Positions 29,848-30,527 of a stretch of 64,000 nt of DNA are shown here, in pieces (position 1 is the stretch's first letter; the number at the start of each line of letters is the position of its first letter). The stretch comes from Escherichia phage Turkey3: the sequence record PQ471515.1, one strand, 5' to 3'. The notes below the pieces were generated by a model. That model was not told the origin of the DNA. It was given only the letters and a program-made list of their open reading frames with translations, and did no database searches. Position numbers and translations under genes: made by a program.

Positions 29848-29877
29848 GACATACCATAAGTTTATGATATAATGTAA

Positions 29878-29909
29878 GGTGACAGCAGAATATGTTGTCA
29901 CCTTTTTTT
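29878..29909 (+). terminator. rho-independent terminator
   Basis: GGTGACAGCA-loop-TGTTGTCACC hairpin followed by T7. Confidence 0.65.
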
Positions 29910-30440
29910 AATCCTGAAAGGTTCCATATGGAAATGATTGAAGCCTAATCCACTCGAAAAGTAGAGGGTAGATGAGTAGTCCTTTCAGTACGAACAGCAA
30001 ATGAAACCCGTTAGATGATGGCATAGTTTGAACCACTCACGGCAATGCGGCTGTATAAAGAACTCCAATAGGATAAAGAGAGTTCCTCGATAGACATATA
30101 AGGATCGCACCTTACCAATTATCTAAGGGAGATTTCATGAGAAATTTGCGGTCGTAATTTATACAAAATAGTTGCGTCCAAAATTCGTGAAATCAAATAC
30201 AAGTACTGGTCATATGGTATTTGTATTATGTGTCGGGATGTTTAAGACCGACGACCGTTGCTACAAGAACCGCGATAGAGAGAAACAGAGCAACCCGCTT
30301 TCGCCTCGTAAGAGAATTCGTGATATGAACTATGTGAAGGCCACCAGCGTCAAACTTTTTTGTTCTTTCCCCTGCGGGGGGATGAAATATGCTCAAGCAA
30401 ACCCCGTCAATATTAATTAAAACAAATCATAGTACTTTCG
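29910..30440 (+). other. GC-rich, ORF-poor, hairpin-dense non-coding island (candidate structured RNA or cis element)
   Basis: no credible CDS; 12-nt palindrome TTCCATATGGAA; stems GAACTC/GAGTTC, CGGTCGT/ACGACCG, GTCGG/CCGAC, GTTGCT/AGCAAC, CCCC-TGC-GGGG read directly. Confidence 0.4.
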
Positions 30441-30469
30441 TTGAATTAGACATGCGAAGCGTGTATAAT
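30441..30469 (+). promoter_or_regulatory. sigma70-like promoter (TTGAAT-17-TATAAT with TGn)
   Basis: TTGAAT 30441-30446; GTGTATAAT 30461-30469. Confidence 0.55.
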
Positions 30470-30527
30470 TCGACTGGTGTTGATGAAGTCAACGCCATGT
30501 ACAGTCATTGATGTTTCCATAGGAATA

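Follow-up and report, generated by a model that had tools for sequence, protein, structure and literature searches.

The gap that precedes the dam operon in a 64,000-nucleotide (nt) stretch of Escherichia phage Turkey3 (PQ471515.1; the whole stretch is called the window below) almost certainly holds a functional gene for a structured RNA. The original prediction had offered two options for this region, a structured non-coding RNA or a cis-acting element for replication or recombination, and the first has gained strong support from conservation and covariation across genera and paralogs. As sequence comparisons show, jumbo phages of the RaK2/121Q/GAP32 clade carry 4-5 old paralogs of this RNA per genome, each kept at a syntenic position, and the window copy is one of them.

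To look for a folded RNA we used an alignment of 28 copies (A3), no two of them above 96% identity, and scanned all of its column pairs. From this alignment we assembled 85 base pairs in 18 helices, three pseudoknots among them. Standard pairs filled 96.4% of the cells, compared with 38-42% when the 3′ partners were slid by 1-3 columns. A search for compensatory substitutions had been proposed as a check, and in 61 of the 85 pairs both partners had changed, which amounts to 431 compensatory cells. The covariation score was 0.494, against 0.07-0.09 in the slid controls, and was reached by none of 500 shuffles. RNAalifold, run separately on 26 copies, proposed 72 pairs, and compensatory double changes were seen in 42 of these. 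G-U pairs exceeded A-C pairs by 127 to 10, and hence we take the + strand as the folding strand. The parts of the RNA, in window coordinates, are the following:

29914..30114, + strand: 5′ domain (from the A3 alignment and pair counts)
29914-21/29981-88, + strand: helix P1
29922-26/29929-33, + strand: helix P1a
29953-55/29964-66, + strand: helix P1b
29976-78/29989-91, + strand: pseudoknot PK1
29994-98/30050-54, + strand: helix P2
30008-11/30039-42, + strand: helix P2a
30060-64/30081-85, + strand: helix P3
30099-102/30111-14, + strand: helix P4
Within the 5′ domain: invariant strands GAUGAG, GAAACCCGUUAG, CACGGCAAUGCGGC and GAUAGACAUAUA
30124..30194, + strand: invariant UAAGGGAG, then the P5 domain
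30131-34/30191-94, + strand: helix P5, which encloses the peripheral module AUACAAAAUAGUUGCGUCCAAAAUUCG (30161-30187)
30202..30329, + strand: pseudoknotted 3′ core
30202-08/30215-21, + strand: P6 hairpin
30209-15 with 30323-29, + strand: pseudoknot PK2, P6 loop GUCAUAU with AUAUGAA
30233-35/30248-50, + strand: helix P7
30257-61 with 30290-94, + strand: pseudoknot PK3, GUUGC with GCAAC, inside the P9 loop
30271-75/30318-22, + strand: helix P8
30278-82/30298-302, + strand: helix P9, GAGAG/CUUUC
30305-07/30312-14, + strand: helix P10
30345..30411, + strand: 3′ module, which begins with CAGCGUCAAAC
30356-30361, + strand: U-run of the 3′ module
30369-30387, + strand: CCCC-UGC-GGGGGG hairpin and GAUGAAA, in the 3′ module
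30398-30411, + strand: CAAACCCCGUCAAU, end of the 3′ module

The best-supported elements in the window are P1, P3, P5, P8, PK2 and PK3. PK2 has seven pairs, six of them with double changes, and 99.5% of its cells are paired; in P8, P9 and PK3 this value is 100%. Long invariant strands lie between the helices. We sought long-range partners for UAAGGGAG, the G-run and CAAAUCYCGUCA, whose invariance leaves no covariation to show any. Regarding the periphery, the module GUACAAUAUAGAUCCGUCYAAAAUUYG is placed within the P5 domain of some paralogs, and other paralogs have it in their P10 hairpin (alignments A2 and A3). Peripheral modules placed in alternative helices are the pattern of large ribozymes with a fixed three-dimensional architecture, and the swapped module may likewise be a sign of a complex fold here. 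We also considered a hammerhead-like reading of CAGAUGAG...CGAAC around PK1 and rejected it, given that the core positions vary (GUUGAG and AAUGAG in A3) and no hammerhead model matched; the motif looks like tandem G-A pairs beside a helix.

The original prediction had described the region as hairpin-dense and listed six inverted repeats. The hairpins are real, and five of the six repeats turned out to be conserved helices: TTCCATATGGAA is P1a, GAACTC/GAGTTC is P3, GTCGG/CCGAC is P7, GTTGC/GCAAC is the pseudoknot PK3 and CCCC-TGC-GGGG is helix P11, with only CGGTCGT/ACGACCG being without covariation support. The folding energy of a single sequence, however, was not significant. Folding with shuffled controls, another of the proposed checks, gave minimum-free-energy z-scores of -1.29 (+ strand) and -0.48 (- strand) for the window sequence, and we dropped thermodynamic stability as evidence for the RNA.

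One could argue that the region is instead a degraded, frameshifted or tiny protein gene, either the 82-aa open reading frame (ORF) at 30172-30420 or a mini-ORF after GGGGGG-AUG. Indeed, some GenBank records place 1-6 'hypothetical proteins' across it, and peptides resembling MK.xQQISSV are possible after the G-run in 15 of the 28 copies. But the mini-ORF is in another frame in eight copies and is absent or reduced to 1-2 codons in four, and the segment aligned with the 82-aa ORF, which starts with TTG, contains 2-12 stops in all 27 other copies and has a length that is not a multiple of three in 19 of them, so that indels break the frame in most. Besides, the substitutions track helix pairing and not codons, and the annotated small coding sequences (CDSs) differ in strand and position between records. 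This makes a protein gene barely credible, and on the grounds of stops, indels and mini-ORF frame changes we ruled out a leader peptide, a coding gene and a frameshifted gene. The earlier statement that the region has no convincing CDS therefore holds for the 30172-30420 ORF, and comparison of the copies revealed no conserved protein gene hidden by a frameshift, an outcome that had been named as speaking against an RNA.

No feature is annotated across the gap in the 121Q, G17, GAP32, BF and XbC2 records. Small CDSs on varying strands are annotated inside RNA copies elsewhere, as in 121Q at 247799-247954 (gene 516, - strand) and in Klebsiella phage Muenster (CDS 248/249; L208:1118-1719), and the WPEC3, JP4 and SHEFM2K records show 4-6 'hypothetical proteins' under the match. 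Small CDSs of this kind are very likely annotation artefacts.

To place the RNA among phages, we compared the locus with other genomes. Region 29700-30600 of the window shares 99.9% identity with phage vB_Ec-M-J and 91-95% with 121Q, PBECO4, G17 and phAPEC6, and the window belongs to Asteriusvirus, the 121Q/PBECO4-like jumbo coliphages of 350-380 kb. A sensitive blastn search (query 29900-30480) gave matches of ~480 nt at 67-76% identity in jumbo phages of Erwinia, Xanthomonas, Salmonella, Serratia, Cronobacter, Yersinia, Pectobacterium and Klebsiella, at 4-5 separate, dispersed places per genome. In Yersinia phage fHe-Yen9-04 and Pectobacterium phage CBB, the best match was a different locus, adjoining endonuclease VII. 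The conserved part of the gap measures ~500 nt (about 29910-30420) and is kept in Mimasvirus, Eneladusvirus and Alcyoneusvirus phages, as well as in uncultured relatives. A profile search of the whole 121Q genome detected four full-length copies, all of them on the + strand:

192.8 kb, + strand: copy c1, the counterpart of the window copy, upstream of the dam operon
326.6 kb, + strand: copy c2, between endonuclease VII and the baseplate hub
90.3 kb, + strand: copy c3, after a sigma-factor gene
247.5 kb, + strand: copy c4

Copy c1 is the sole one inside the window, where neither blastn (word size 7) nor nhmmer found another. An exact-pattern scan yielded 29 loci in IMG/VR and 37 loci in metagenomes (35 true members); nearly all are bordered by homologs of 121Q proteins and can thus be assigned to phages of the 121Q clade. 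A fifth paralog position also emerged from these loci; in synteny it matches 48-56 kb of 121Q. Phage Muenster (Alcyoneusvirus, RaK2-like) carries a divergent full-length member (E=8e-56), and an uncultured subgroup has only the 3′ half of the element in common. The paralogs group by genomic position and not by phage, which indicates that the duplications are older than the genera. Plasmids gave no match to the element, and a loose pattern run on bacterial species genomes gave 120 chance matches, none upheld by nhmmer.

As none of the known families tested could accommodate the element, we regard it as a new RNA class, with the caveat that GOLLD and ROOL are earlier examples of large structured RNAs from phages in the broad sense. 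The covariance-model scan that had been suggested matched no family: Rfam 15 gave 0 matches at the gathering score in the whole window, and in E-value mode only chance matches in the window region (E at least 2.8), in eight other ortholog or paralog loci and in five distant-subgroup loci. The families covered in this way include GOLLD, ROOL, OLE, group I/II introns, RNase P, transfer-messenger RNA (tmRNA), 6S, hammerhead and EAR. The original prediction had found no T-loop like that of a transfer RNA (tRNA), and ARAGORN finds no tRNA or tmRNA in the 64-kb window. Regarding group I/II introns, the element is intergenic in every paralog, between complete unrelated ORFs, and no intron model matched. 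The literature we searched contained no description of this RNA, although one of the 10,006 candidates of PMC10690425 may be this RNA without a name.

The sequence around the RNA suggests how it would be transcribed. The relevant features, two of them found by consensus scan, are:

29844..29873, + strand: predicted promoter of the RNA gene (consensus scan), with an extended -10 TGATATAAT at 29865-29873 and a poor -35
29876..29911, + strand: terminator of the upstream 285-aa gene, a 12-bp GC-rich hairpin (29876-29904) and then a T-run
30441..30469, + strand: promoter-like site TTGAAT-17-TATAAT, tentatively assigned to the downstream gene (consensus scan)

The original prediction had the region bracketed by promoter-like elements. 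Both sites are present, and the upstream TGnTATAAT is conserved, but the number of such sites does not exceed that in shuffles (4 vs 3.7 expected). In every paralog and ortholog examined, TGnTATAAT precedes the start of the conserved sequence by a few bases, at a fixed distance; it was found before the c1 orthologs of 121Q, 7t3, Kaldavass, BF and GAP32 and before paralogs c2-c4. A -35-like box, TGAAACG, accompanies it in three of the five c1 orthologs (Mimasvirus and Eneladusvirus promoters). Transcription of the RNA is predicted from sequence to start at ~29880. The terminator noticed by the original prediction is there, hairpin 29876-29904 with its T-run, and the order of stop codon, promoter, terminator hairpin and RNA is common to c1 orthologs of at least three genera (window 29844-29911; loci L003, L005, L006 and L007 at ~1390-1460). 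Locally started transcripts would then begin inside the 5′ arm of the hairpin or at its base, so the hairpin would be weakened as a terminator for them and intact for read-through from upstream. A terminator downstream of the RNA promoter may in this way discriminate read-through from locally initiated transcripts. At the other end, a small hairpin (30450-30464) overlaps the 30441-30469 site and aligns with 'ACGAAGUGA-loop' hairpins 3′ of other copies (A3 columns 700-745). One or two hairpins with (A)ACGAAGUGA(A) loops recur 3′ of most copies (A3 columns 700-760; L026:4275-4320, L208:1745-1830), and they are reduced in the window. They could belong to the transcript or act as a promoter or regulatory element.

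The 3′ module behaves differently from the rest of the RNA. These last ~70 nt (30345-30411) are nearly invariant, with CAGCGUCAAAC, the U-run, CCCC-UGC-GGGGGG-AUGAAA and CAAACCCCGUCA, and for this reason the module is beyond test by covariation. A terminator-like hairpin stands 5′ of the U-run in 18 of the 28 copies and covaries in five of its six pairs; the window copy has no such hairpin, and nor has any c1 or c3 copy. In 121Q, the CCCC/GGGGGG motif occurs only within these elements.

We also found the RNA outside phages. Two of 5,426 complete Escherichia coli genomes, LR-29-1 (NZ_AP027515.1; L206:11963-12600) and EEC_W5 (L207), contain the RNA at full length (E=4e-136), with 80.6% identity to copy c2 of Serratia phage BF. 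This copy has its own TGTGATATAAT promoter and lies within a 10-kb integrative island adjoining ffs, together with an IS3-split integrase, a resolvase and the candidate defence systems PDC-M45 (DuOB, DUF488, mSLOG-DUF4326) and PDC-S16. The homology between phage and E. coli island stops exactly at the RNA borders, which is consistent with a self-contained unit. The core proteins of these islands are common throughout Enterobacterales, and the 3′ module occurs alone in nine further E. coli genomes and in three Klebsiella/Raoultella island loci, which represent a protein found on >100 contigs; for bacteria other than E. coli, the distribution was established by protein-anchored island look-ups. 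The island module consists of the terminator-like hairpin, the CCCUUGCGGGG hairpin and CAACAAAUCUCGUCAG. In the Klebsiella/Raoultella islands (L209:4335-4575) it is located directly 3′ of a TGTGATATAAT promoter and upstream of a 498-aa helicase-like gene. In the islands that have the module alone, the stretch that would pair with the absent core has decayed. The 3′ module is thus separable and is retained where the core has been lost. The islands show two further features. Hairpins with (A)ACGAAGUGA(A) loops occur twice there too, and GATC-rich, iteron-like direct repeats (TTATCGATCGTT and variants) lie upstream of the island core gene hyp257 (L206:12950-13110; L209:6900-6990). These repeats may serve the island as its origin or as an operator.

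It is mainly the 3′ module that lends some probability to two other explanations. One, which we consider unlikely, is that the element is a cis-acting leader for the control of elongation: a riboswitch, an attenuator or a processive antitermination signal like HK022 put/EAR. The folded RNA, with or without a phage protein, would set read-through of internal and later terminators into the downstream array, and in the islands this 3′ module would switch the island genes in response to a phage. Like HK022 put, EAR and terminator riboswitches, the element presents a structured domain, then a terminator-like hairpin with U7 (in the 18 copies that have it) and a conserved block, ahead of long operons: c1, c3 and c4 are at the head of long + strand gene arrays, the c1 promoter is followed at once by a terminator hairpin, and the island module lies between the TGTGATATAAT promoter and the first island genes. 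However, it is much larger than these systems, known antitermination RNAs being five to seven times smaller; the c1 and c3 copies, with that of the window, do without the internal hairpin; c2 copies have no co-directional genes after them and face convergent ones; the downstream gene in the window has a separate predicted promoter; and no cis-regulatory family of Rfam matched.

The other explanation is an origin primer transcript, like ColE1 RNA II or the R-loops at oriF/oriG of T4. The G-run of the 3′ module would nucleate a persistent RNA-DNA hybrid, from which RNase H and the T4-like replisome of the phage would make a leading-strand primer, the 4-5 copies would be multiple origins, and the islands would keep the minimal unit of promoter and 3′ module for amplification on infection. 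The element resembles RNA II in size and layout. A promoter-driven RNA of ~0.5 kb with a G-run near its 3′ end, in several copies per T4-like genome, is common to both, and 4-5 dispersed copies recall the several origins of T4. Some c1 promoters contain the TGAAACG box, which the paper on phage CBB links to DNA-synthesis genes (PMC5259590). The restriction of the invariant CCCC/GGGGGG motif to these elements in 121Q also fits, as does the fact that islands with promoter and 3′ module encode a helicase-like protein and have GATC-rich iteron-like repeats. On the other hand, a primer has no need of ~430 nt of invariant strands and covarying pseudoknots, a constraint on sequence and tertiary structure far stronger than in ColE1 RNA II or the T4 origins. 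The 100 nt downstream are 69% AT, compared with a genome average of 66%, so there is no AT-rich unwinding element; the four 121Q copies all run in the same direction and show no inflection of the cumulative GC skew, a weakly informative sign for a T4-like phage. Taken together, we regard an origin primer as improbable. As for the replication or recombination element of the original prediction, the analysis decides neither for nor against it, and it survives only for the 3′ module, which is invariant, has the G-run and stands alone in host islands.

Our preferred reading, to which we would give an even chance as a whole, is an independently transcribed RNA that acts in trans, a new 'ornate' phage RNA that serves as a ribonucleoprotein or RNA-only scaffold or as a ribozyme. 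We prefer it because the invariant strands, covarying pseudoknots and swapped peripheral modules, over 430 nt, speak for an object of precise three-dimensional shape and not for a mere transcript. Host RNA polymerase would start at the extended -10 promoter (29865-29873) and produce a + strand RNA of ~0.5 kb, from ~29880 to at least 30411. This transcript would fold into several domains with at least 18 helices and three pseudoknots, where the invariant single strands and a compact H-type pseudoknot core (GACCGUUGC ... UAGAGAGAAAC ... GCAACCCGCUUUCG) could provide a tertiary fold or a binding surface. It would then act as RNA in early to middle infection, with the paralogs presenting different peripheral hairpins on one conserved core.

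Several points weigh against a trans-acting RNA or limit the evidence for it. The alignment used for counting the helices is also the one from which we had selected them, so the fair comparisons are the slid-register control and the independent RNAalifold run, not the shuffles, and the folding energy of the single sequence is no better than that of its shuffles (z=-1.29). We infer the ends, abundance and stability of the transcripts of all members, as well as their action in trans, from sequence. The 3′ module, being invariant, following a terminator-like hairpin in most paralogs and standing without a core behind a promoter in host islands, suits a cis-acting signal for transcription or replication better than a part of a trans-acting RNA. 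Finally, no partner protein or ligand is pointed to, and no neighbour gene is conserved across the paralogs.

The closest systems in kind are GOLLD and ROOL, which like the element measure several hundred nt, have many covarying helices and pseudoknots, are phage-borne and are non-coding; the resemblance is one of kind and not of homology. Unlike them, the element does not match their Rfam models and occurs as 4-5 diverged, syntenically fixed paralogs per genome, in Enterobacterales jumbo phages. GOLLD and ROOL are typically beside tRNA genes, whereas the tRNA cluster of 121Q (72-78 kb) is away from the four copies. GOLLD and ROOL are reported to form RNA-only multimers (PMC12286853). PK2 could equally be an intermolecular contact, since covariation cannot tell intra- from intermolecular pairing. 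In PA5oct, a related jumbo phage of Pseudomonas, RNA-seq defined four long non-coding RNAs (lncRNAs), ORF-free, on the + strand and 236-619 nt long, two of them highly expressed (PMC7318152). From them it is clear that a related jumbo phage does express transcripts of this long non-coding kind. We rejected a homology between these lncRNAs and our RNA family for want of detectable sequence similarity, the best nhmmer match having E=0.03 over 47 nt and no signature motif being shared.

Regarding the gap itself, the upstream 285-aa gene has its stop at 29847. For the downstream gene, the likeliest start codon is the ATG at 30531; its product is then the one of 180 aa known from the G17 annotation, and the gap is ~680 nt long. 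The original prediction had rightly described the region as ORF-poor and GC-richer. There is no ORF of at least 90 aa in 29848-30476, the second-longest such gap in the window, and 29910-30429 has 40.8% GC compared with 33.8% for the window, a value at the 98th percentile for stretches of 520 nt. Gaps of 540-670 nt in which no ORF reaches 90 aa also occur at 41224-41895, 61460-62045, 33313-33881 and 53661-54199, with no match to the RNA profile, and the 520-nt stretches richest in GC, up to 44.8%, lie at 50640-51300. The upstream paralog array includes two 285-aa ORFs (26955-27812 and 28990-29847), and homologous arrays precede c1 in other genera. Further downstream, window 31611-32144 (121Q gene 418) is named 'ribonucleotide reductase A' in 121Q and 7t3 and cytidylyltransferase in GAP32, BF, XbC2 and Kaldavass; the reductase name looks like a propagated misannotation.

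Three things lay beyond the view of the original prediction: the 4-5 paralogs per genome, a family that spans the RaK2-like clade, and the unremarkable folding energy of the single sequence. Few large, elaborately folded RNAs of bacteria and phages are known (RNase P, tmRNA, OLE, GOLLD, ROOL, group I/II introns), and from every one of them something new in biochemistry or architecture has been learnt. Here, a family of ~520-nt RNAs is present in cultivable coliphages (121Q, PBECO4, phAPEC6 and G17), in which deletion, expression and cryo-EM (electron microscopy) studies are feasible, and with it spurious 'hypothetical proteins' can be removed from dozens of jumbo-phage records. The family accounts for 4-5 of the largest non-coding gaps in these genomes, in an unusual pattern of ancient paralogs at fixed genome positions with one module common to host-range mobile defence islands. 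As a tentative view, which we hold possible but rather doubtful, the RNA would be a hallmark class of the clade, with 4-5 non-redundant paralogs, and its 3′ module would be read by the phage machinery, in origin firing or antitermination, and copied by host defence islands or satellites to sense or exploit infection.

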